Positions 1,432 through 18,978 of a DNA stretch of 22,584 bases are shown piece after piece. The stretch is from a virus. Lineage: Duplodnaviria; Heunggongvirae; Uroviricota; Caudoviricetes. Positions within the stretch are counted from its first letter, which is position 1; the number at the start of each line of letters is the position of its first letter. The stretch is taken from positions 1 to 22,584 of IMG/VR virus record IMGVR_UViG_2740892449_000008; one strand, written 5' to 3'. A program made the translations under genes and the position numbers. The notes beneath the pieces are model-generated. The model saw only the letters and a list, made by a program, of their open reading frames with translations, did not search any database and had not been told where the DNA came from.

Positions 1432-2332
1432 CCGAGCCTCCGGTCACGACGCTGTATTCGGTACAGAAAGACGCCTGCGTATTGTTGAGCACGATGTCGG
1501 CCAGCGGTGCAGCCAGTTCGACACGCTGCACGCCTTCCACATGCAAAGCGGCATAAATGGCAGACAGACGGATGTCGCGCCCAAGCCGGTGCTGTGCCGT
1601 GATGTACGCTTCCAGTTTTTTCACGGCAGCAGCGCGGATGGGTTCGCTTTCGGGACCTGGGTAAAGGTAAAGCGTGGCGTTTATCTGATATTCAACAATG
1701 GCGGCAGACTGCACGGTCACGCGGTCGGCCACCGGCCTGACGTCCTCGCCATTAAGGGCGTTACGCACCACGGCCAGCAGGTCTTCGGATGCGACGCCGT
1801 TATTTTCACGTGACAGCACGGAGATAGTGACGCAGGCCGGAGACGGACTGGTGACAGAGATATCCGCGACACGCCCGTCGGCACTGCGGCCATGATACTG
1901 ATAGGCACCCACCGACCCGGCGACGCTTAAACCTTCAAACGCCTGCTGAATACGCAGACGATAATCGGTGTCAGATTCCATCACTGCCGGTGTCGGCGGA
2001 ATGGTCGAATCATCTTCCGGGGTGATAATCAGGCGCGTGGTGTTGTAATTGGCACCAATCACATCAAGGTCATTACCGGCTGCACAGGCCAGCATCACCG
2101 CCCGTGCAGCCTCATTCACACGCTGACGCCAGATAAGCTCACGATAAGCATTTTCCTCCAGCAGTTTGACGAGAGGCTCAGATTCCAGCGTCAGGGTACG
2201 GGCGACCGCCTCCTGCTGGTCTTCCGGGTAAAGGGAAATCAGTGTCGCCTTGCGTTCGGCGAGAATGGTTTCAAAGTCCAGCTCCTCAACCACATCCGGT
2301 GCGGGTAGCTGGTTCAGGTCGATAATCGGCAT
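1424..2332 (-). CDS. J: Baseplate assembly protein J
   Basis: 302-aa intact ORF (MPIIDLNQLPAPDVVEELDFETILAERKA...) matching recalled P2 gpJ in length and sequence; 8-nt overlap with I. Confidence 0.9.
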   Translation of the reverse strand: MPIIDLNQLPAPDVVEELDFETILAERKATLISLYPEDQQEAVARTLTLESEPLVKLLEENAYRELIWRQRVNEAARAVMLACAAGNDLDVIGANYNTTRLIITPEDDSTIPPTPAVMESDTDYRLRIQQAFEGLSVAGSVGAYQYHGRSADGRVADISVTSPSPACVTISVLSRENNGVASEDLLAVVRNALNGEDVRPVADRVTVQSAAIVEYQINATLYLYPGPESEPIRAAAVKKLEAYITAQHRLGRDIRLSAIYAALHVEGVQRVELAAPLADIVLNNTQASFCTEYSVVTGGSDE

Positions 2333-2336
2333 GGTT

Positions 2337-2684
2337 TCAACTCACAGGGATGGTTAACGAAAGTGGCTGGCCGGTGTCGTTGTGCTGACCGGTTAATGTG
2401 ACCGTCATTCGCCCGTCAAAACTGCGCTCAGTGGTGACGGATGACAGGGTGACGCGGGGTTCCCATTTCAGCACCGCCATGTAACAGGCAACCTTAATCT
2501 GCAACTCAAGCGCCGGGGTCTGCGGCTGGTCAATCATTGACGCCAGCAACGAGCCGTAATCACGACGCATCACCCGTGAGCCGACCGGTGTGCGCAGGAT
2601 ATCGCCGATACTCTGGCTGATATGCTCAAGGTCAGTGACAGTCAGGCCATCACTGCGATTCATTCCAAGATAACGCGCTGTCAT
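2337..2684 (-). CDS. W: Baseplate wedge protein W (gp25/GPW family)
   Basis: 115-aa ORF (MTARYLGMNRSDGLTVTDLEHISQSIGDILRTPVGSRVMRRDYGS...) in the P2 gpW position between J and V. Confidence 0.9.
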   Translation of the reverse strand: MTARYLGMNRSDGLTVTDLEHISQSIGDILRTPVGSRVMRRDYGSLLASMIDQPQTPALELQIKVACYMAVLKWEPRVTLSSVTTERSFDGRMTVTLTGQHNDTGQPLSLTIPVS

Positions 2685-3316
2685 AGAGGACTCCCGGTTG
2701 TGCCGCCGCTGTCGCCGGGGTGTTTATGGGTATGCAGTACTTTACCGTTTGATGAGAGTTCACCGCCGGTGTGTTCAATGTTGCCGCGCATCGTCCCGCC
2801 CTTCTGCACTTCCAGCGTGCCGGTAATCAGCCTGTTGGTGCAGACCACCTCTGGTGTGTCCAGGGTGACGCGGGTTGATGCTTTCACCGTGACCACCGGC
2901 ACCGTGGCAGTAACAGAATCAGAAGCCGTCACGCTGGCCGTTTTAATTCCGCTTACCGTGAGTGCACTGGTTTCGGGTTCATACTCAATCACCGCCCCGT
3001 CAGGGAAACGGATATGCAGGGCATCCGCCGACGCAGACGGCGCGGGGTTATCACCGGAATAAATCCCCGGCAGAACGAACGCCGTGTCGAGTTCACCGCC
3101 CACGGCCAGAATCAGCACCTGTTCCCCCACGGAAGGTGCCCACCATGTGCGCGAACGTCCGGCACGATGGGTCAGCCACTGAAGCCAGTCGGTGCACATG
3201 CCGCCGGTCTGCACACGGCAGCGACTGGCGTTAAGGTCGGTTTCGACGATAATGCCGGGGCGTATCATGTTGCGCAGCGTGCGCGCGAGTTCCTGGATAT
3301 TTGCGAGTGTTTTCAT
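2681..3316 (-). CDS. V: Baseplate spike / tail assembly protein V
   Basis: Track ORF 2681..3352 begins at a TTG; the ATG at 3316 gives MKTLANIQELARTLRNMIRPGIIVETDLNASRCRVQTGG... which matches recalled P2 gpV. Overlaps W by 4 nt. Confidence 0.9.
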   Translation of the reverse strand: MKTLANIQELARTLRNMIRPGIIVETDLNASRCRVQTGGMCTDWLQWLTHRAGRSRTWWAPSVGEQVLILAVGGELDTAFVLPGIYSGDNPAPSASADALHIRFPDGAVIEYEPETSALTVSGIKTASVTASDSVTATVPVVTVKASTRVTLDTPEVVCTNRLITGTLEVQKGGTMRGNIEHTGGELSSNGKVLHTHKHPGDSGGTTGSPL

Positions 3317-3373
3317 AAGATCTAGCATGCTGCTGAGAACTGATGAGAACAATAAAAGAGTGTTTTTCTAAGG

Positions 3374-3406
3374 TTGACACAACACTCCATTTGAAGTGAA
3401 TATAAT
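3374..3406 (+). promoter_or_regulatory. Possible promoter hexamers upstream of the RelA/SpoT-like ORF (TTGACA 3374-3379, TATAAT 3401-3406)
   Basis: Both consensus hexamers are present in the AT-rich V/ORF intergenic region, but the spacer is 21 bp, which is non-canonical for sigma70. Confidence 0.25.
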
Positions 3407-3449
3407 GATTACTTAACTGGCAAAAAAACATCCTCACTAATTGGAGCCA

Positions 3450-4541
3450 ATGGATACACGCATGTCAGACATTCTAATTACTTATGATGAACGGAAAGAT
3501 AAATTTGAATCCTATGCCCTTACTCTTAAATCGTTATTAACCACGTTAATTCGCAATGAAAAAATTTCAATTCACTCACTAGAATCAAGAGTTAAAACAA
3601 AAAAAAGCCTTGAAGGCAAGATTAATAAAAAGGGAAAATACAAGTCTATAGATGATATTACTGATATCGTTGGTATCAGGATCATCACACATTATGCTGA
3701 TGATGTTGATAAGATAGCTGCTATAGTTGAAAAGGAGTTCACCATTGACCAAGAGAACTCTATTGATAAAAGAACCTCAATTGCGCCTGATAAATTTGGT
3801 TACTTATCACTTCATTATATAGTAACTTTAAGCTCAACCAGAACAAACTTAAAAGAATATGAAGTATATAAAAACATCAAAGCCGAATTACAAATACGAT
3901 CAATCCTTCAGCATGCCTGGGCGGAAATTGAACACGACATTGGTTATAAGTCGGCCACAGGACTGCCTAATGAAATAAGAAGATACTTTTCACGCTTAGC
4001 TGGTCTTTTAGAAATGGCCGATGATGAATTTATTAAAATCAGAAAAAAGATTTCTGAACGGCAGAAAGAGGTTGCAAAAGAACTAGAGCAAGGAACTAGT
4101 GATTCAGCTTTAGATATTTTCACTTTGGATGAATTCTTAAACACAAGTCGAATTATGAGTGAACTTTCAGAAGAGATAAAAGAAAAAACAGGAATCACAG
4201 TACATGGCCGATACAAGGATAAAGATTTGGGATACCTACTAAATAGTTTAAAGCTAGCCAACATAACTACAATAGAACAGCTCAATCAAAAACTCTCACA
4301 AATGAAAAAGCAGATCGTAGAGAGAATATTCTGCTTCGGAGAACTATTTATTGATTATTGCAGAGAAACCCCCATGCCAAAAGAAGTTCTTTTGAGTTAT
4401 TTATGTCAAATTATCGTTGCGTTTCAAAACTCACCTTCGTTAGAATCTGAATTTAATAACAAAGCAGGTTTAAATCTGAAAAACAGCGATATCTCCGATT
4501 TTTTCTCGAATATAAGAGAAAACATAAGCACACAACCTTAG
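3450..4541 (+). CDS. RelA/SpoT-homologue synthetase-fold nucleotidyltransferase with uncharacterised C-terminal domain; candidate fused toxSAS (CapRel-like) defence protein
   Basis: Intact ORF (track 3441..4541 from TTG; ATG at 3450 or 3462). Motifs seen: RVKTKKSLEGK, DDITDIVGIRII (D-x-x-G-x-R), AELQIRSILQHAWAEIEHD (E-x-Q-I-R...H-x-W-A-E-x-E-H), which together are the RelA_SpoT synthetase signature. No hydrolase domain and no adjacent small ORF. Strongly AT-rich, and opposite in orientation to the flanking tail genes. Confidence 0.75.
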   Translation: MDTRMSDILITYDERKDKFESYALTLKSLLTTLIRNEKISIHSLESRVKTKKSLEGKINKKGKYKSIDDITDIVGIRIITHYADDVDKIAAIVEKEFTIDQENSIDKRTSIAPDKFGYLSLHYIVTLSSTRTNLKEYEVYKNIKAELQIRSILQHAWAEIEHDIGYKSATGLPNEIRRYFSRLAGLLEMADDEFIKIRKKISERQKEVAKELEQGTSDSALDIFTLDEFLNTSRIMSELSEEIKEKTGITVHGRYKDKDLGYLLNSLKLANITTIEQLNQKLSQMKKQIVERIFCFGELFIDYCRETPMPKEVLLSYLCQIIVAFQNSPSLESEFNNKAGLNLKNSDISDFFSNIRENISTQP

Positions 4542-4570
4542 CTTTAGTTTTAAAGTATTCTAACAGAAGA

Positions 4571-4596
4571 CTGCTGCCGATAAGCACCGGCAGCAG
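4571..4596. terminator. Hairpin between the convergent RelA/SpoT-like ORF and gene S (possible bidirectional terminator)
   Basis: Perfect 9-bp inverted repeat ctgctgccg / cggcagcag with an 8-nt loop. The minus-strand side is followed by a moderately T-rich tract; the plus-strand side has no U-run. Confidence 0.35.
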
Positions 4597-4621
4597 CGAT
4601 GAGGTGTCGGGAATGGCACAA

Positions 4622-5074
4622 CTAACGATCGAGGTGAGTCAGGATAATCTCTTCAATCATCTGCACATCCTCACCGGTAAAGCCGAGCAGAGGACGCGCC
4701 GGATAATCAATTTTCTTACCGTCTTTCCGGTTTTCTTCCGACAGACCAAACTGATGCACACTGGCGATTTTCGGCGACTTCCCGCCGTAAAATTCCATTG
4801 ATGCCTGCTCCGGGCTGGCACGGATATGCAAAAAACGACTGGTGATAAGTTTCGCAAACATTTTTCGCTTAACGCGACCGGTCTTTTTTCTGGCGCTCTG
4901 CTGCTGGCGTGGTGCGTAGGGTGTGCCGTCCGGGGCTTTCTGTACCATCACCCGGCGCTGCTGACTCTGCCGCAGACGTTTCGCCAGTTCGGCACTCAGT
5001 CGCCGACGCCCTGACGGTGACAGCGATTCAATAAGTCCGGTCAGCCGGTCTTCAAAACGCTTAAACTCATTCAT
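4622..5074 (-). CDS. S: Tail completion protein S
   Basis: 150-aa ORF (MNEFKRFEDRLTGLIESLSPSGRRRLSAELAKRLRQSQQRR...) matching P2 gpS length and recalled sequence. Confidence 0.9.
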   Translation of the reverse strand: MNEFKRFEDRLTGLIESLSPSGRRRLSAELAKRLRQSQQRRVMVQKAPDGTPYAPRQQQSARKKTGRVKRKMFAKLITSRFLHIRASPEQASMEFYGGKSPKIASVHQFGLSEENRKDGKKIDYPARPLLGFTGEDVQMIEEIILTHLDR

Positions 5075-5534
5075 CCCACTTGCTCACCAGTTCGCCATTG
5101 ATATAAAGCTCCACCGGGCGGGTGACCGGCTCCGGCGGCGGAGGTTCCGGGATATTCTTCACATGCAGTGCGCCATCCACCTCACTGACCAGCGTGCGCT
5201 CGGTCAGCATCAGGCTGATGCTGATATCAAAGCTGCTGTCATTGTTGATGTCCGCATAAAACGTGAAGCCCTTTTTCTGGCCTTCGTCGGTGGTCATGAT
5301 GTCGGGCTGATTTTCCCGCAGCCACGCCAGCACCGGCACGATGAGCAGGTCAAAATCACCGGTAAAGTCGGTCACAATGACATTGAGCGTGTAACGCTTT
5401 TCAAATGACAGCGACGTCGCCAGTGTGGAGGCAATACTCCCGTTATCCACGAATATCCGCAGCATCTCGGGACTGGTTTTCAGCACCGTGACGGCATCAG
5501 TCAGCGCCCTGCGCAGGCTGTCGGGTTTGAGCAT
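5067..5534 (-). CDS. R: Tail completion protein R
   Basis: 155-aa ORF (MLKPDSLRRALTDAVTVLKTSPEMLRIFVDNGSIASTLATSL...) matching P2 gpR; 8-nt overlap with S. Confidence 0.9.
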   Translation of the reverse strand: MLKPDSLRRALTDAVTVLKTSPEMLRIFVDNGSIASTLATSLSFEKRYTLNVIVTDFTGDFDLLIVPVLAWLRENQPDIMTTDEGQKKGFTFYADINNDSSFDISISLMLTERTLVSEVDGALHVKNIPEPPPPEPVTRPVELYINGELVSKWDE

Positions 5535-8832: not shown

Positions 8833-9906
8833 TTACGCTCCCGGCTCTGCGGTCGCCTTAGCCGGTGTGGAGAAATCACCGACCTTAATTTTTTCCACCA
8901 GACAACCGGCGGCGTAGTCTTCCACCACGTAATCAATGTTCATTGACTCGTAGTTCTCCACGCGGTCGAGTTTCGGGTTTTCCACAATCACGCGGCGATG
9001 GCTGTCATCCATGTAGTAGATGGACAGGTTTTCCAGCTTCGTGATGAGCATCGCATCCGCCGGGAAGTACGGGACGCGTACCGCCGGCAGGTTACCGATG
9101 CGTTTCTGGCTGATGATGACGTCAGCGGCCAGCATTTCGCTGTTGTCCTGCTCCTTGTTAACGATGGGGAAATACTTGTCCGCCAGTAGCTGACGCCCCA
9201 CAATCACCACAAGGTCAGGGTCTTCCTGATACCACGGCTCAATCAGGTTGTTGGTCGCATCCATCACCAGTGCATCGAGGCTGGCATAATCACCGCCTTT
9301 ACCCACGCGGATGACCTCAGAGGTGGTGTGACCTTCCTCGTCAGTGACCTTGCTCATCACGCGCGCCGGGGCTTCATTGCGGTATTTCTGCAGCCAGCCG
9401 ACCGCCACATCCTGCAGCATCGGATTGCTGCTGCGGTCAGAGGTTTCGGCACGCCTCACGCCGTTAAAACCGGCCATGATGAAATCAAGGGACTGGCGTT
9501 TGATAATGGCGTTACGGACACGGAGCTGGAAATCCTGATAACGCGCCCACAGGTCAAGCGTTTTGTAGCGGATATAAAAATCGAAGTTAATCTGGTCGCA
9601 TTCGTACTTGTTTGACGCCAGCTTCGAGAAGTCCTTCGGCTGACGCTCGGTGCCACCGGCGGTGTCGGTGGTGCTGGCGATGGAGCCGGTGACACCAATA
9701 CCAATTTTTTCCCCTTTCATTTCGCTGACCGGCACAATGTTGATGCGGGTCAGAAAGTCAGAGGACTCCTGCATGGTATTCATCAGGGTCTGGGTGACCG
9801 ACGGTTCAACGGTGAATTTTTTCGACACATCACCGGCGTCGATGCCGTTCAGTTCGGCAACACGGGACAGGTAGGCATTAAATTTAAAGCGGGTTTCCTG
9901 GCGCAT
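8833..9906 (-). CDS. N: Major capsid protein N
   Basis: Intact 357-aa ORF (MRQETRFKFNAYLSRVAELNGIDAGDVSKKFTVEPSVTQTLMNTMQESSDFL...) matching recalled P2 gpN. Confidence 0.95.
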   Translation of the reverse strand: MRQETRFKFNAYLSRVAELNGIDAGDVSKKFTVEPSVTQTLMNTMQESSDFLTRINIVPVSEMKGEKIGIGVTGSIASTTDTAGGTERQPKDFSKLASNKYECDQINFDFYIRYKTLDLWARYQDFQLRVRNAIIKRQSLDFIMAGFNGVRRAETSDRSSNPMLQDVAVGWLQKYRNEAPARVMSKVTDEEGHTTSEVIRVGKGGDYASLDALVMDATNNLIEPWYQEDPDLVVIVGRQLLADKYFPIVNKEQDNSEMLAADVIISQKRIGNLPAVRVPYFPADAMLITKLENLSIYYMDDSHRRVIVENPKLDRVENYESMNIDYVVEDYAAGCLVEKIKVGDFSTPAKATAEPGA

Positions 9907-9978
9907 AGTTTTTCCTGAAATTAAGGGTTAATCGTGAAGGTTTTCCCGGACTGACTGACGCCGGTCAGCAGTTCGTCA

Positions 9979-10818
9979 TCAGGCGTCACCGCCACCGCCG
10001 GTGGCCTTGCTGCGGCGCTGCTGGGTCAGACTTTCGGTGTGGTCGAGGCTGTTTTTCAGGCGGGTGAATGCCTGGCTGGTTTCATCCGCCCTGTCAGTCA
10101 CATCCTGCTTAAGTGCGGAAAAGGCGGTTTCCATCTCAGCGAGGCGCTGCTCAGTGGCGCTCAGTTTTTCCTGCACATGTTCAGCAACAGCGGTCACCGC
10201 TTCATGCACGTCATTCAGACGGGCGTCATCGCTGGCCTGTTTGCGGCCAAAAATGGATTTCACCTTTTCGGTCAGGGCGGTGAACACGGTTTCAGGCAGG
10301 TCTTCAAATTCCAGCTCAACAGGCGTTGCCACTGAAATCAGGTTTTCAGGGCTTAATTTGAAGCGGTTCAGGGGGTTGTGTTTTGCCGTGCGGCAGAATT
10401 CCAGGTATTCCGTGCCGAGGCTTGCCGGGTCATCGGTGACGGCCAGACCCACCAGATAACATTTGCCGGTATTGGCAAAGTTCGGCTGAATTTCCATTGA
10501 GGTATAGACCTTCTGCGCGGCCTTGTTCATCGCGATAAGGTCATCGGTCGGGGTGATTTTCGCAAACAGCGCCCATTTGCCTTTCAGCGCCGAATCATCG
10601 TCAATCTTTTCGGCCTTCAGTTCGACCACATCGCCATAACGCTTAAAAATACCGTCAGGCAGGATGCCGCGCAGATGTTCCAGGTTAATGCGGCAACCAT
10701 AGACTCGCGGGTCAAAGGTTTCGGCCATTTCCTGAATATCCTGCGCACTGATGACACGCCCGTCACAGGTGTCACCCTCAACGCCGATACGAAAGAATTT
10801 TGATGCTTTTTTTGCCAT
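9979..10818 (-). CDS. O: Capsid scaffolding protein O
   Basis: From the ATG at 10818: MAKKASKFFRIGVEGDTCDGRVISAQDIQEMAETFDPRVYGCRINLEHLRG..., matching recalled P2 gpO; SD-like GGAG-containing sequence upstream. Confidence 0.9.
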   Translation of the reverse strand: MAKKASKFFRIGVEGDTCDGRVISAQDIQEMAETFDPRVYGCRINLEHLRGILPDGIFKRYGDVVELKAEKIDDDSALKGKWALFAKITPTDDLIAMNKAAQKVYTSMEIQPNFANTGKCYLVGLAVTDDPASLGTEYLEFCRTAKHNPLNRFKLSPENLISVATPVELEFEDLPETVFTALTEKVKSIFGRKQASDDARLNDVHEAVTAVAEHVQEKLSATEQRLAEMETAFSALKQDVTDRADETSQAFTRLKNSLDHTESLTQQRRSKATGGGGDA

Positions 10819-13984: not shown

Positions 13985-14101
13985 CGCCCGCTTAATGGGG
14001 CGGTTTTAATGCGGGTGCATAACCACTTCTTACCCACATCAATTCTGGTCAAGCCAAGCAGTACAGCTTATGATTTCAAGATGCAAACTCATGCAGCAAT
14101 G

Positions 14102-15231
14102 TTAAATTCTGCATCCATCGGTTTGAAAATGTGATCCGTTTTTCGAATTCAAACTCAACTCTGTTTGACTCTTTTGAACATTAATAGTTTTACCAGTAAG
14201 GACATCCAAAACCCCTGCAGCAACAGCCTGCGCCAATTTACAAGGCACAGCATTCCCTATCTGACGCCAAATTGACGAATTTTTCCCCACAAAGACATAA
14301 TTACTCGGGAATGTTTGAATCAAAAGAGCCTCATCTATCGTTAGTCGACGTAAACGACTAGGTACATCGTGCATATCTTTTGGCTCACCACCATTCATTA
14401 GATGATTATGATAAGTCTCAACATAACTTGTTGAGCCATCATAAAGGTGTTCTTCATCAATAATTGGTGTCCTATTCCCCCCATAGAAGCAGCTATAGTT
14501 GAAGCATACCCATTCGGGTTAATTGGTCTTCCCTGCCCGTTAAACATCATTCCCGCGTAAGGTGACTTCCGTAATACTGGCTTAGCAGCATTTGTAATCC
14601 TTGCATTACAGACTCTTGAATTGTTTGGATTACCCGCTCGCCCTAAAGGCCGAATAATCTCACCAACTGTGGGCGAAAGATATTGGTATTTTTTTATCGC
14701 CGCCTCAACTCGTTTCACATCATTTTCGGAACGAAACCCTATAAAAAACATACGTTCCCTATTCTGAGGAACGCCAAAATCTTTAGAATTCAGCACCAGC
14801 AAGGCTGAACGATAGCCTGACTTTTCAGCCATCTTAAACAGTTCACACCTAACTGGTTCAAATTTGGACAACTGTGCTAAAGCCTTAACATTCTCCATAA
14901 CAAAGCATTCTGGTTGAATTATATCCACCGCCCGCATGAATGACATAACCAGCTTACTACGTGGATCATGAGCGTCCATTTTCCCTGCCACAGAAAATCC
15001 TTGGCATGGAGGCCCACCAAAAACACAACCTATATTTTTCAGCCCAGACAATTCACTTAGCATCTCATCAATATCACCACAAAAAACAGGTGATTCATGA
15101 TTAAGCTTAAATGTATCACATGCATCCTTATCTATATCATTGGCCCAAACTGTTCGGAACCCGGCATTAGAGAAACCGACATCCATCCCTCCTGCCCCAG
15201 TAAATAAGCTCACCGCTGAAATTTTGTTCAC
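14102..15231 (-). pseudogene. DNA (cytosine-5) methyltransferase, -1 frameshift in a C6/G6 run at 14466-14471; start uncertain (GTG 15231 or TTG 15270/15294)
   Basis: C5-MTase motifs in order: LFTGAGGMDVGF (motif I), GGPPCQGFS (motif IV), MENVKAL (VI), QNRERMFFIG (VIII), then after the frame change RRLTIDEALLIQTFPSNYVF and QIGNAVP (IX/X). Adding one G to the ggggggaat run joins ORFs 14398..15294 and 14102..14398. AT-rich. Confidence 0.85.
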
Positions 15232-15314
15232 TTCTTTAGCACCAATTATTCGATTTTGGAATAAAACCAATGATAGGTAAGGATCGACACACAATCAATC
15301 ACCTTCTAAACCAC

Positions 15315-15584
15315 ATGGCAAAACGACAACCAACTATACATGATCATAGATACAGGTGCCTAGTCCAGCTTCTCACCAAACTACGCAAAGAAGCTTCTCT
15401 TTCGCAGTCAGAATTGGCCATTTTTCTAGGATTATCACAATCAGATATATCTAAAATCGAAAGCTTTGAAAGGCGATTAGATGCTTTAGAACTATTTGAA
15501 TTATTAGAGGTGGTTGCAAGCCGATTAGGTCTACCAATGGATATCTTACTAAAGGACACCTATGAAAGTATTAGTAAATCATGA
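15315..15584 (+). CDS. Small HTH (XRE-type) regulator, likely R-M controller (C) protein
   Basis: About 89 aa from the ATG at 15315 (alternative ATG at 15270). Helix-turn-helix signature SLSQSELAIFLGLSQSDISKIE. Divergent from the MTase, and its 3' end overlaps the start of the next ORF by 23 nt. Confidence 0.65.
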   Translation: MAKRQPTIHDHRYRCLVQLLTKLRKEASLSQSELAIFLGLSQSDISKIESFERRLDALELFELLEVVASRLGLPMDILLKDTYESISKS

Positions 15585-16615
15585 GCAAGCCTATAATGTA
15601 ATTATAAATGCAATCAACGATGCAAAAAAATTAACTGATTACAAAACAAATAATCAATGGGTCTCCATTCAAAATGTAATTTTAGGCACCCACCTTACAT
15701 ACAGATATATACTTATTACTGGTTTACTTGCAAAAGCAACAGACCCTAGAGTAAACCCTCTGGCTTTACAAGCTAATGCCCCCGTAGACGGAGCCTATGA
15801 TGCAAGAAGTTTATGTCATTCGGTAATAGTAGCAAAGTAGAAGGCCCATATTTAGAGGGTAAGTTAGGCGCATCAAATGAGCCATTTCTAAATAAACCTG
15901 CTCGTTACATGCTCCACTCCTCTGATAACCCTGTGCGCAGAGGAAATGATAAGGTTTTACAACAACTTTCAATTGATATATTACATGCAGCAACAACCCA
16001 AACCTTAGCTTATGAAATGCTTGTTATTGCATTATATTTTACCCTACAGCGAACCAATAGAGTTATAACGCCGAACTCAATTAATTTTGATTTCCATAAG
16101 ATTATTTATAATATTATATCTCATCCTTGTGATGGAGAAACATGCGCGATTGCTGCCGCAATTTCGTTACATTTATTAGGTGAACAAAGAGGATGGATAA
16201 TAAAAGCACATCCCGTCAATCAGCCGGTAGCTCCTCAAAAGAGATACTGGACATAGATGTATATCATGACGATATAGTTTTCCTTTCTATAGAAGTGAAA
16301 GACAAACCATTTAATTATCAAGATGTTAATCACGCCGTTTCAAAAGCATCTGCATCCGGGATTTCAAAAGTTATCTTCCTTAAAGGGCCAAGAGCAACAA
16401 ACTTAGATATTGATGAGTCTCTTGCGATTGAGAACGCTGCGACAAAAGGTGTTTCACTAAGCTTTAGTGACGTCATGACATTCACAACAACATGTTATGC
16501 GTTATCGCCACTATTAAGTAATGACAGAATAATAGATTTCATAAATAACACTTTAAAAGACATCAGAGCTAAAGATAGCACTATAGAATACATACAATCC
16601 ATATTTAAAAATTAA
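15562..16615 (+). pseudogene. Putative type II restriction endonuclease (PD-(D/E)xK), read through two -1 frameshifts
   Basis: Three consecutive ORFs (15562..15840, 15813..16256, 16193..16615) in frames 0, -1 and -2 form one ~351-aa gene if two bases are restored. AAGGA SD 6 nt before the ATG at 15562. Candidate catalytic motif D-x7-E-V-K in DIVFLSIEVKDK. Context: C gene upstream, C5-MTase divergent. Confidence 0.5.
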
Positions 16616-16622
16616 TACTCCC

Positions 16623-16657
16623 GGGACAATATAGTTCACAACTACGTTGTCCCTTTT
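16623..16657. terminator. Hairpin plus T/A run between the convergent endonuclease ORF and gene A
   Basis: gggacaa (16623-16629) pairs with ttgtccc (16647-16653), followed by ttttaaaa; lies between the two convergent stop codons. Confidence 0.4.
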
Positions 16658-16708
16658 AAAACAGTCAAGCAATTGCATTATATTAATTATTTACTTTTTA
16701 TCACAATC

Positions 16709-18978
16709 TCATAATTCATACGCTCTCCAATCACATATAACAGGATAACTGAAGCTTCTCCCGTCGTAATTTACACTTGCCCCACGCGCCAGCGCCTCAA
16801 GCTCCCATCGCTGCGGCCTGATACCGTTCTGAGCAAGGTCAACGCGGATACGGGTGATTTGCAATCGTTCAGACCTGGTCAGTCTGGCCGATGGTGCTAT
16901 TTCATGTGGTTTTAACGGGCTTCCGTTTCTTTGCTGACGACTTGGCGTTCTCCGACCGTGTTTTAATGCACCCCTGAGCGCCCTCACGACCTCCGGGTCA
17001 TTCCATTCGATAACACCGTCATCAACCAGATTAAGCACTGCTGCGGCATGCTCAGAAGGTGTGGGAGCCGGTAACGAAGCATCACCACCGGTGAGCTTTC
17101 CACAGTTATTGACAGGACTCCGAGGCGCGGCGATGCCGCTTTTTAAAGTCAAAGGCTCAACGACCGGAACTTTCGGCACAATGCGCCAGTCCGTCGTTCT
17201 GGTGATATGAATATGACGCGCGCCGAGATGCGGCGCGTAAATGCCGACCACTCTCTCGACTTCTTCCTCGTACTCGTTAACGTCATCCGACGGGCTACGG
17301 GCGACCCTGACAGTCTGACAATCGCGCGGGACATTTGCCCCGCCCTGCGCGCTGATATACAACGCAAAATCACCACTGTCTGCAGCGGCGCGTGCAGCCT
17401 CGACGCGCTCGTCAAACTCATCAGCAATGCTGACGCCGCGCGGCAATTTGCGTAGTTCACGGTAAGCCCCCATTGTCGGCAGGCCAACCGTTTTAAATTG
17501 CGGGATGCGCCACGTTGACGCCCATGCGGTAACAGCCGCTGCAGTGTCTTTCAGCGGCCTGCCGGTGTCGTTATCGAGCTGACCATCCAGTGCATAGCCG
17601 TCGATGTTTTTTGAAATGTATTTCGCGATATATCCCGCAGCACCGCCCCGGTTAAGGTGTTTTGCCTGAAAACGGTTTCGCGCAGCTCCTCTTTCGTCTC
17701 CATCCTCTTTGAGCGCGTAGCGACGCATGATTTCGATAATCTGGTTACGCTGGCGCGAATTACAAAAAAGCATTATATGCCAGTGCGGCGTTCCGTCGTG
17801 GTGTGGCTCGACGACACGCAAACCGTAGACCTGTAAATCATTATCCTTGAATGCCGTGCGCATCAGGCTCCAGATACGGCAGAGATAACGCTGCGCATCC
17901 TTTGGATTAAATGCCTCATCGTTCCAGCCGTGATTTAGCTGGACGGTTTTACTTTCGCCTTTTCCAACCTGACGTGTCGGGTGATACTTTGACGGCGCGG
18001 TCAGCGTGATAAACATCCCCACATCACCCTCTGCTGCGGCGTAACGCTCAATACCGGCAATGGTGTTCATCAGCTCCATCCGGCGAATTTCAGGATTAGA
18101 AATACTGCCCATCACCTTACTGATAAGGTCGATGCGCTCGCCGGTTTCCCTGTTTTCGAGATCACACGATTTAAGAAATTCCAGATTTGCCTGGCGGCGT
18201 GCACGCACATCACGAATGGCATGTTTACTGGCATAAGGAGAACGGTCTTTATTGACCTCCCCGACAGCAATCAGTAACGCCTCATGCCAGCGCATACGCT
18301 GGCCTTTAAGCTGATGAGTCCACCACTCATCGTTAAACAGACGGGCAATGGCAGAATATGCCTGCCTCGTGGTCATCTGTCCTTTACGGTATTTTTTCCA
18401 GTAGAGAGGGGAAATATTGAAAGCACGTGCAGCGCCAGCAACATGACCATACAGGTGAGCCTGCGCCTCATCCGTAAACAGCGATTCTTTTTCGCCATGC
18501 GCATCCACCCAGGCATCGCAGAGTTCCTCATACATCATGAAAAGCTGCGATGAGATACGGGCGGCAAACTTTTTCAGCTCCTTGTCATTCATTCCAGGCA
18601 GGCGCGCATAGTGGTCACGCTCTGCCAGAAACAGCAACGACGCGTCGGTGTTCATTTCATGGCGCTGATTCACACGCTCAATACGCGGCCATAAACGACG
18701 CTGAAAAGTGGATGTGAGGAAATAAAACCCGTGTACCGGACTTTTATTGCGCCGGATGTAGTCATAGCGTGAAGTAAACAGCGAGCGCAAAAAGTAAGGC
18801 AGGCGGTTAATCGTGGATAAAACACCTTGCACCTGACGCATCTCGTCACGTGTAAGAGGTCTTTCTCGCCCGACGGCCTCGCGTGGCGCGTTCCATGCAT
18901 AAGCACCGGTAAACGTCTCACCGGTGCCTGCGGCAAATGCTGACGGAGGGACAAAACGCCCGGAGCTTTAACGGCCAT
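16709..18978 (-). pseudogene. A: Replication initiation protein A (rolling-circle nickase), -1 frameshift about 20 nt after the start codon
   Basis: ORF 16709..18841 (MRQVQGVLSTINRLPYFLRSLFTSRYDYIRRNKSPVHGFYF...) matches recalled P2 gpA from residue ~47 onwards. The ATG at 18978 reads MAVKAPG and then the frame slips; inserting one base in 'gctccggg' restores MAVKASGRFVPPSAFAAGTGETFTGAYAWNAPREAVGRERPLTRDEMRQ. Confidence 0.85.

Follow-up and report, generated by a model that had tools for sequence, protein, structure and literature searches.

A stand-alone RelA/SpoT-fold enzyme with its own C-terminal domain in the S–V slot of an Escherichia P2-like prophage: a probable anti-phage gene outside the CapRel and gRel families

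The stretch analysed here (the window; 22,584 nucleotides, the IMG/VR virus record IMGVR_UViG_2740892449_000008) is the late-gene region of an Escherichia P2-like prophage, with its late genes on the minus strand. Between genes V and S it carries a gene for a stand-alone synthetase-fold protein of the RelA/SpoT homologue (RSH) type, which is intact and selectively maintained. It is probably an anti-phage gene, related to the known CapRel and gRel families but outside both of them; its context as AT-rich prophage cargo is most plausibly explained by a role in defence. The gene has already been catalogued, as “GTP pyrophosphokinase” in RefSeq, as family 9640 in PHROGs and as “divRel” in 2011, and RSH-based immune enzymes are known as a kind. 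What is new is the variant, as its family, its presumed regulatory domain and its cargo site all differ from those described before.

An earlier note on this DNA, made from the sequence alone, had proposed that the protein carries three synthetase motifs in its N-terminal part and no hydrolase domain, and both points hold. All three motifs are present within a match to Pfam RelA_SpoT (PF04607; E 1.8e-21, 77 bits versus a cut-off of 27; residues 46–169 of a 363-aa form, equivalent to 42–165) that greatly exceeds chance expectation, and no HD or hydrolase family was matched in the Pfam scan. Residue numbers refer hereafter to the 359-aa form of the window protein. The RxKxxxSxxxK motif corresponds to R43, K45, S49 and K53, and it is accompanied by the Mg-binding D68 with G71 and R73, by the G-loop Y114, and by E142-x-Q144-x-R146. 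Across 86 family members, R43, K45, K53, D68, G71, R73, Y114, E142, Q144 and R146 are invariant and S49 is nearly so. Judging from these intact catalytic residues, the gene is predicted to encode an active RelA/SpoT-fold pyrophosphokinase.

The nearest solved proteins are RelQ and RelP, recovered with E-values of 9e-16 to 1e-12 from the single sequence and of 6.5e-18 to 5e-14 from the family profile, whereas CapRel-SJ46 (7ZTB, 9ERV) only reached E ~0.03–0.1 in these searches. The AlphaFold2 (AF2) model computed from 86 sequences (mean predicted local distance difference test, pLDDT, 89.8) displays an alpha/beta core at residues 1–160, one long helix at 170–210 and an all-helical domain at 219–356. 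The similarity to the RSH synthetase fold anticipated in the earlier note is recovered with this model, as a Foldseek search of the PDB ranks 39 RelQ/RelP chains on top (best E 4e-10, TM 0.77 relative to the target, ~200 aligned columns), with the CapRel structures ranking below them (E 1e-6, TM 0.37).

The C-terminal domain, presumed to be a regulatory or sensor module, sets this family apart. When residues 204–359 were modelled separately, the prediction was confident (pLDDT 94.5, predicted TM-score 0.90), and Foldseek detected no fold relatives of this domain in the PDB and nothing below E 1 among viral structure models. It is also much more divergent than the remainder of the protein: in the alignment of 86 sequences, family members are on average 61% identical to the window protein over residues 1–210 (N domain and linker) but 25% identical over residues 211–359. 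Searching a profile of the C domain against 1.84 billion representative proteins yielded 904 cluster representatives at E up to 0.001; among the 150 matches listed, one was a repeat-protein artefact and the others were proteins of ~350–385 aa with the domain at ~205–360, or shorter ones. Twelve short entries were considered as free-standing C-domain proteins, as would be expected of a split toxin–antitoxin ancestor, but all of them begin within the linker or the catalytic domain and are truncated copies. The C domain thus appears, from these searches, to exist only fused to the RelA/SpoT synthetase of this family. Its net charge is −5 in the window protein and ranges from −16 to +8 across the family. 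Weak matches of the family profile (positions 183–296, E ~0.03) to residues ~99–217 of Dpo4/DNA polymerase IV were treated as chance similarities between helical, low-information sequences.

The resemblance to CapRel is one of organisation. Like CapRel, the window gene encodes a single polypeptide carried by temperate phages or prophages, in which an RSH synthetase-fold (toxSYNTH) N domain with the same, intact catalytic residues is joined to a variable C-terminal region, with no separate antitoxin gene. The earlier note had read it as a candidate fused, CapRel-like defence protein; the stand-alone RSH fold, the additional C domain and the prophage cargo location stood up to analysis, while “CapRel-like” did not, either as a family assignment or as a mechanism. 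Indeed, BLASTP of CapRel-SJ46 (taken from Salmonella phage SJ46, record KU760857, 56389–57510) against the window protein aligned only the catalytic core (134 residues, 25% identity, E 1e-5), without any match between the C-terminal halves, and the family profile aligned with CapRel only over query residues 62–206 (hhalign probability 87%). The C-terminal antitoxin/sensor domain of CapRel is therefore unrelated to that of the window protein. The PADLOC candidate single-gene model PDC-S33, which from its matches is in effect the CapRel family, leads to the same reading. CapRel-SJ46 covers this model nearly end to end (E 7e-87, residues 11–370 on model positions 4–342 of 349), whereas the window protein matches it over residues 26–246 only (E 2.5e-16, 58 bits), and together with three homologues (1e-14 to 1e-20) it covers the catalytic region and at most the linker and the first C-domain residues. 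A match to PDC-S33 that is confined to the N-terminal part of a protein, such as that of the window protein, should not be taken as CapRel membership.

The two proteins also differ in charge. The catalytic domain (residues 1–168) has a net charge of +1 in the window protein and −3 on average in the family (isoelectric point, pI, 6.3), in contrast to +10 to +12 for the CapRel synthetase domain, −1 for RelQ, and −3 and −5 for gRel fragments; these are bulk charges, a crude proxy for a mapped surface, and by this proxy the window protein lacks the basic catalytic domain of CapRel. For the whole proteins, the values are +18 (pI 9.5) for CapRel versus −3 (pI 6.2) for the window protein. The tRNA-modifying toxSAS enzymes are reported to display a basic cluster at the exit of the active site, and the charge there to be reversed in RelP/RelQ, which would be incompatible with tRNA binding (Kurata et al., preprint). 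A tRNA acceptor is thus less likely for the window protein, as its catalytic domain is devoid of the strong positive charge of CapRel, although bulk charge is suggestive only. By analogy, and in contrast to the tRNA substrate of CapRel, a nucleotide acceptor is more likely, considering the bulk charge, the closeness to RelQ and gRel, and the gRel-like layout.

The second immune enzyme to which the window protein must be compared is gRel. In Pag1B, the gRel of a type I PANGU system, a synthetase domain is joined through a helical linker to a C-terminal domain that is acidic; the protein alone is an inactive tetramer, its isolated synthetase domain is not inhibitory, its activator is a co-encoded YejK-like nucleoid protein freed from the chromosome by phage nucleases, and its product is pppGpp; an anti-phage role through alarmone synthesis has been shown for gRel (bioRxiv 10.64898/2026.04.06.716658). 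Since the isolated synthetase domain of gRel/PANGU is inactive, the toxicity that the earlier note expected of an N-terminal fragment of the window protein is an unsafe prediction. The window protein shares with gRel the synthetase–linker–C-domain layout, as seen in the AF2 model, a similar total size and a non-basic catalytic domain. At the sequence level it is nearer to gRel (31% identity to a Neisseria protein over residues 116–210, E 7e-13, with a shared LQHAxAExxHDxxYK motif) than to CapRel (25%, E 1e-5). In contrast, a YejK-like NA37 gene always accompanies gRel, while the window gene is flanked by gpV and gpS and has no partner. NA37 was absent from the 25 commonest neighbour families of 80 loci of the family, a comparison for which the Neisseria locus served as positive control. 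Furthermore, the C domains are not detectably related (hhalign probability 3% between the C-domain profile and the Neisseria gRel), and a DNA-mimicking (DMK) C domain such as that of Pag1B was not recognised, in a comparison made with the Neisseria gRel, the charge of the family domain not being consistently acidic.

The Neisseria locus comes from NZ_CP119140.1, an N. gonorrhoeae record of 2.17 Mb that is filed as a plasmid; the NA37/YejK-like gene (2305–3345 of the locus) overlaps the start of a small alarmone synthetase (SAS) gene that is split by a frameshift (3342–3716 and 3713–4351); the pair resembles a decayed type I PANGU operon. Two plasmid matches (H41 and H49) were considered as possible PANGU loci, and on examination neither one is.

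The closest relatives by both sequence and structure are nevertheless RelQ and RelP, which provide the best matches for residues ~20–210, their C-terminal helix included, and which have a similarly near-neutral net charge. The window protein differs from them by an extra C-terminal domain of 150 residues, and its gene is prophage cargo in E. coli, not a core gene. At 359 aa, it departs from the single-domain organisation of RelQ/RelP (~210–230 aa with an allosteric pppGpp site). Homology does not identify it as a housekeeping (p)ppGpp synthetase, a possibility that the earlier note had raised against its own reading: the NCBIfam RelQ equivalog NF053588 (GTPPhKinYjbM) scores 72.8 bits versus a cut-off of 320, and there is no partner gene. 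The residues reported to form the allosteric pppGpp site of RelQ (K21, K25, R28, E41, F42, T44 and N148; Steinchen et al. 2015) align with A, K, L, H, S, E and H in the window protein, so that one of the seven is kept. In an earlier classification, the only SAS of E. coli S88 (YP_002391895.1) was classed as “divRel”, that is, unassigned and neither gRel nor capRel (Atkinson et al., 2011). As S88 has a single “GTP pyrophosphokinase”, we infer that this protein is the orthologue of the window gene.

The family is widely distributed. A word-indexed protein search returned 4733 matches, of which the best 120 are nearly all 350–380 aa long, and family members were found in at least 592 species-level genomes (one genome scanned per species). 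These belong to Gamma-, Beta-, Delta- and Epsilonproteobacteria, Bacilli, Clostridia and Negativicutes, and further to Actinobacteria, Bacteroidota, Cyanobacteria, Chloroflexi, Acidobacteria and Saccharibacteria. Within E. coli the gene is rare, being carried by 14 of 5426 complete genomes, in all of them at the V–S location. No full-length family member was found in 50,697 phage records, in which only N-domain matches of at most 36% identity were recovered; PHROG 9640, annotated as of unknown function, covers the window protein end to end.

The same slot has harboured the gene for a long time across genera, since homologues from Klebsiella (54% identity), Serratia (49%) and Yersinia (47%) all lie in the V–S slot of P2-like prophages in the orientation seen in the window. 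Beyond this slot, the gene is repeatedly carried alone by several unrelated types of prophage. The Shewanella homologue (52% over 70% of the query) adjoins the CI-like repressor of a lambdoid prophage, and the Photobacterium one (47% over 79%) occupies one end of a CTX-like filamentous prophage. The Bacillus homologue (41%) is found in a defence island, between McrBC, Abi_C, HNH and RES genes and an integrase. In Pseudomonas entomophila, the homologue (47% over 80% of the query) belongs to an integrase island that also contains an AAA_15 ATPase and a fragment of a tail-S gene. The fragment (73 aa, at 9826–10047 of the locus analysed) matches Phage_tail_S weakly and is found ~700 bp downstream of the homologue; it may be a remnant of a P2-like V–S slot carried along with the gene.

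The family gene is a stand-alone unit. In 80 species-level loci, the 701 open reading frames (ORFs) situated up to 4 kb from the gene were clustered, and no family among them occurs in more than eight loci. A conserved neighbour such as an antitoxin, a nucleoid-associated protein (NAP) or a small alarmone hydrolase (SAH) was not found in these loci, and the recurrent neighbours are generic regulators, transporters, helicases, integrases or products of synteny between close Streptococcus species. The same holds in the window itself, where the earlier note had seen no adjacent small antitoxin ORF: only 145 bp separate the gene from the start of V upstream and 80 bp from the stop of S downstream, and the other ORFs of the V–S interval are all antisense and embedded within the RelA/SpoT-fold gene. 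A separate partner gene therefore cannot fit there.

From these observations, we infer that the protein may act in defence, how its C domain may gate it and which acceptor it may use. The C domain would hold the enzyme off until an infection cue appears, either by inhibiting it in cis or by serving as a platform for its activation. Once activated, the enzyme would move pyrophosphate from ATP to an acceptor, which is likelier to be a purine nucleotide (GTP/GDP or ATP) than a tRNA 3' end. The product would be (p)ppGpp or (pp)pApp, with ATP and GTP being drained, and the infected cell would be shut down through abortive infection or growth arrest. Taken as a whole, this composite of a single-gene abortive infection enzyme gated by its C domain and acting on a nucleotide instead of tRNA has, in our estimation, an even chance of being correct. 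A bolder reading, in which the family would be a third, mechanistically distinct type of RSH immunity, namely a widespread single-chain alarmone synthetase sensing infection by itself and bearing a C domain devoid of known structural relatives, with neither the in-cis antitoxin of CapRel nor the NAP-activated mode of gRel, and flooding the cell with (p)ppGpp or (pp)pApp, is put forward only tentatively.

Several observations weigh against this composite interpretation. The literature search retrieved no experiment on this gene or family, nor any discussion of it as a defence system. One of the E. coli copies, 99.9% identical to the window gene (Res13-Lact-PEB08-01, NZ_CP062865.1), has a 1-base indel (4321–5241 of the locus analysed), and its annotation consists of a pseudogene fragment and a hypothetical protein of 175 aa, whereas the remaining 13 copies are annotated as a single GTP pyrophosphokinase coding sequence with no pseudogene split. 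A promoter scan upstream of the window gene called no canonical promoter. When the linker is included, residues 1–212 are slightly basic (pI 8.5). Although the homologues of Enterobacterales and several others are clearly associated with defence genes or mobile genetic elements, this does not hold throughout the family: among the four nearest neighbours in 37 diverse loci, integrases account for 4 of 146 genes and DNA methyltransferases are few, with many housekeeping genes, other defence-type neighbours of these loci being matches to AAA_21, PD-Lambda-5_B and ATPase-Toprim. Finally, in the Streptococcus mitis/sanguinis group, the gene looks like a stable chromosomal gene and not like mobile cargo. 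The homologues of this group have 318–324 aa and match residues 1–278 to 1–280 at 43–44% identity. In five Streptococcus species, they are located directly downstream of the same conserved 556-aa ORF, which we take from its sequence to resemble a formate–tetrahydrofolate ligase, and in four of these species the conservation extends to the wider flanks.

One alternative is a function other than defence, with the protein serving in lysogenic conversion or physiology as a small alarmone synthetase that would tune the (p)ppGpp level of the host, for instance in relation to stress tolerance, persistence or prophage maintenance, possibly with the C domain as a metabolic or oligomerisation regulator. 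In its favour, the nearest solved relatives are the housekeeping RelQ/RelP, the NCBI annotation is simply GTP pyrophosphokinase, many members in other phyla have housekeeping neighbours and the Streptococcus copies are syntenic. However, a physiological synthetase accords poorly with the rarity and accessory nature of the gene in E. coli, with its repeated carriage by unrelated prophage types and in a defence island, with an equivalog score far below the RelQ cut-off and with the conservation of only one of the seven allosteric residues. The divergence of the C domain also suits a sensor engaged in an arms race better than a metabolic regulator, and we regard this explanation as rather unlikely.

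A CapRel-type fused toxin–antitoxin, whose N domain would pyrophosphorylate the 3'-CCA of tRNA and whose C domain would be an in-cis antitoxin released by a phage structural protein, we consider unlikely. Both systems follow the logic of a single prophage-borne gene in which a synthetase is joined to a variable C-terminal domain, and their catalytic cores are remotely homologous, as the PDC-S33 match and the Foldseek similarity to CapRel structures attest. This match is nevertheless confined to the N-terminal part of the window protein, the catalytic domain does not have the strong positive charge of CapRel, RelQ/RelP and gRel are clearly nearer relatives, and no split version with a separate C-domain gene was encountered among the proteins and loci searched. 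Very improbable, in our view, is a PANGU-like effector devoid of its own sensor gene, with a C domain bound and activated by a host NAP, for example the chromosomal YejK freed by phage nucleases. In its favour are the three-part layout shared with gRel/Pag1B, whose activation needs a YejK-like protein and whose isolated synthetase domain is inactive, the mildly acidic C domain of the window protein and the presence of a chromosomal yejK in E. coli (bioRxiv 10.64898/2026.04.06.716658). Yet the C domain shows no homology to that of a gRel, its charge across the family is not consistently that of a DNA mimic, no NA37 gene is adjacent and no neighbour family recurs across the 80 loci. In addition, one shared NAP partner, as we assume, is unlikely for phyla as distant as Firmicutes, Actinobacteria, Cyanobacteria, Bacteroidota and Saccharibacteria. 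The reading that we retain is that of a probable anti-phage enzyme regulated through its own C domain.

The features of the locus are collected in Table 1. The earlier note had described an intact ORF of 366 aa at 3450–4541; the ORF is intact, but this length does not agree with these coordinates, as 366 aa requires the TTG start at 3441. In the ORF listing of the window, this start gives 366 aa, the ATG at 3450 gives 363 aa and the ATG at 3462 gives 359 aa. The last of these is the choice of the NCBI Prokaryotic Genome Annotation Pipeline (PGAP) in E. coli S88 (WP_001280130.1, “GTP pyrophosphokinase”), and the consensus of 85 homologues likewise begins there, so that it fits best with the homologues. 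The strong AT-richness reported earlier is evident, with a GC content of 0.33–0.35 over 3401–4600 versus 0.54–0.61 on either side, and so is the position between S and V on the opposite strand, at the site of the P2 accessory ORF. In E. coli BL21, H-NS is reported to silence the AT-rich defence genes carried by a remnant of a P2-like prophage (2026 preprint), and by analogy such silencing may apply to the window gene as well. The hairpin between the two convergent genes could terminate both transcripts.

Table 1. Coordinates of the RelA/SpoT-fold gene, its domains and the surrounding features in the window
Feature	Position	Strand	Remarks
RelA/SpoT-fold coding sequence	3462..4541	+	359 aa plus stop; PHROG 9640 end-to-end match, E 1.8e-195
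Synthetase domain, residues 1–168	3462..3965	+	Pfam match, conservation, AF2 model, Foldseek
Long alpha-helical linker, ~residues 169–212	3966..4097	+	Aligns with C-terminal helix of RelQ/RelP
All-helical C-terminal domain, residues 213–359	4098..4538	+	Presumed regulatory or sensor module
gpV, P2 baseplate spike gene, left flank	2681..3316	-	ORF listing and annotation
gpS, P2 tail completion gene, right flank	4622..5074	-	ORF listing and annotation
Entire V–S interval	3317..4621	.	AT-rich cargo at the P2 orf30 slot; only 66 bp in Wphi
Possible weak or regulated promoter	3374..3406	+	Perfect TTGACA (3374–3379) and TATAAT (3401–3406), non-canonical spacing of 21 nt
GC-rich hairpin, 12 pairs, between convergent stops of the RelA/SpoT-fold gene and S	4570..4597	.	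Matches the P2 O-operon terminator

The cargo slot itself is known from phage P2 (AF063097), in which the non-essential orf30 lies on the opposite strand between the annotated terminator of the O operon (S) and the start of V. The window gene has an identical insertion point and orientation and, as the interval is empty (66 bp) in Wphi and in one further P2-like phage, it can be counted among the non-essential cargo of the orf30 slot. P2 orf30 was considered as a possible relative of the window protein and rejected, since the sequences are unrelated and orf30 has no Pfam domain. The systems located at the P2 hotspots (old/tin and Z/fun) are, like the window gene, AT-rich moron-like cargo. Studies of these hotspots centre on the A–Q and Z/fun loci, and one mentions less-populated sites within tail genes; the S–V slot is named in these papers neither as a main defence hotspot nor as a carrier of the window gene. 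Compared with the empty slot of Wphi, the complete S-proximal terminator hairpin (4570–4597) is kept beside S, and a short stretch resembling its 3' arm (CAGCAGCAT) is found just upstream of the start of V, at 3317–3345. Because of these two features, the sequence suggests that the cargo has been swapped by recombination at or within the terminator hairpin.

The window contains a second AT-rich island (14000–16700, GC 36–43%), located between the portal gene and gpA (16709–18841, minus strand) at a classic hotspot of P2. It comprises a C5 cytosine methyltransferase ORF (14398–15294, minus strand), which matches only positions 2–195 of 324 in PF00145, and a SacI-family type II restriction endonuclease lying in two overlapping ORFs (15813–16256 and 16193–16615, plus strand) with its first ~90 residues missing. 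This second island looks like a decayed restriction–modification system.

Two RelA/SpoT-type immune enzymes have been worked out so far, CapRel, which acts on tRNA and is triggered by a phage protein, and gRel/PANGU, whose product is pppGpp and whose trigger is a nucleoid protein that has changed location. The family described here has a like enzyme core with a unique regulatory domain and no partner gene, and it occurs in at least 592 species-level genomes of many phyla. Knowing what triggers this enzyme and what it produces would show how a single catalytic fold has been re-wired to different infection signals, and would test alarmone flooding as a common output of abortive infection. The S–V interval would join the list of P2 cargo sites worth mining and, if the third-type reading is true, such an enzyme would long have persisted among the P2-like phages of Enterobacterales, in a cargo slot that has attracted little notice.

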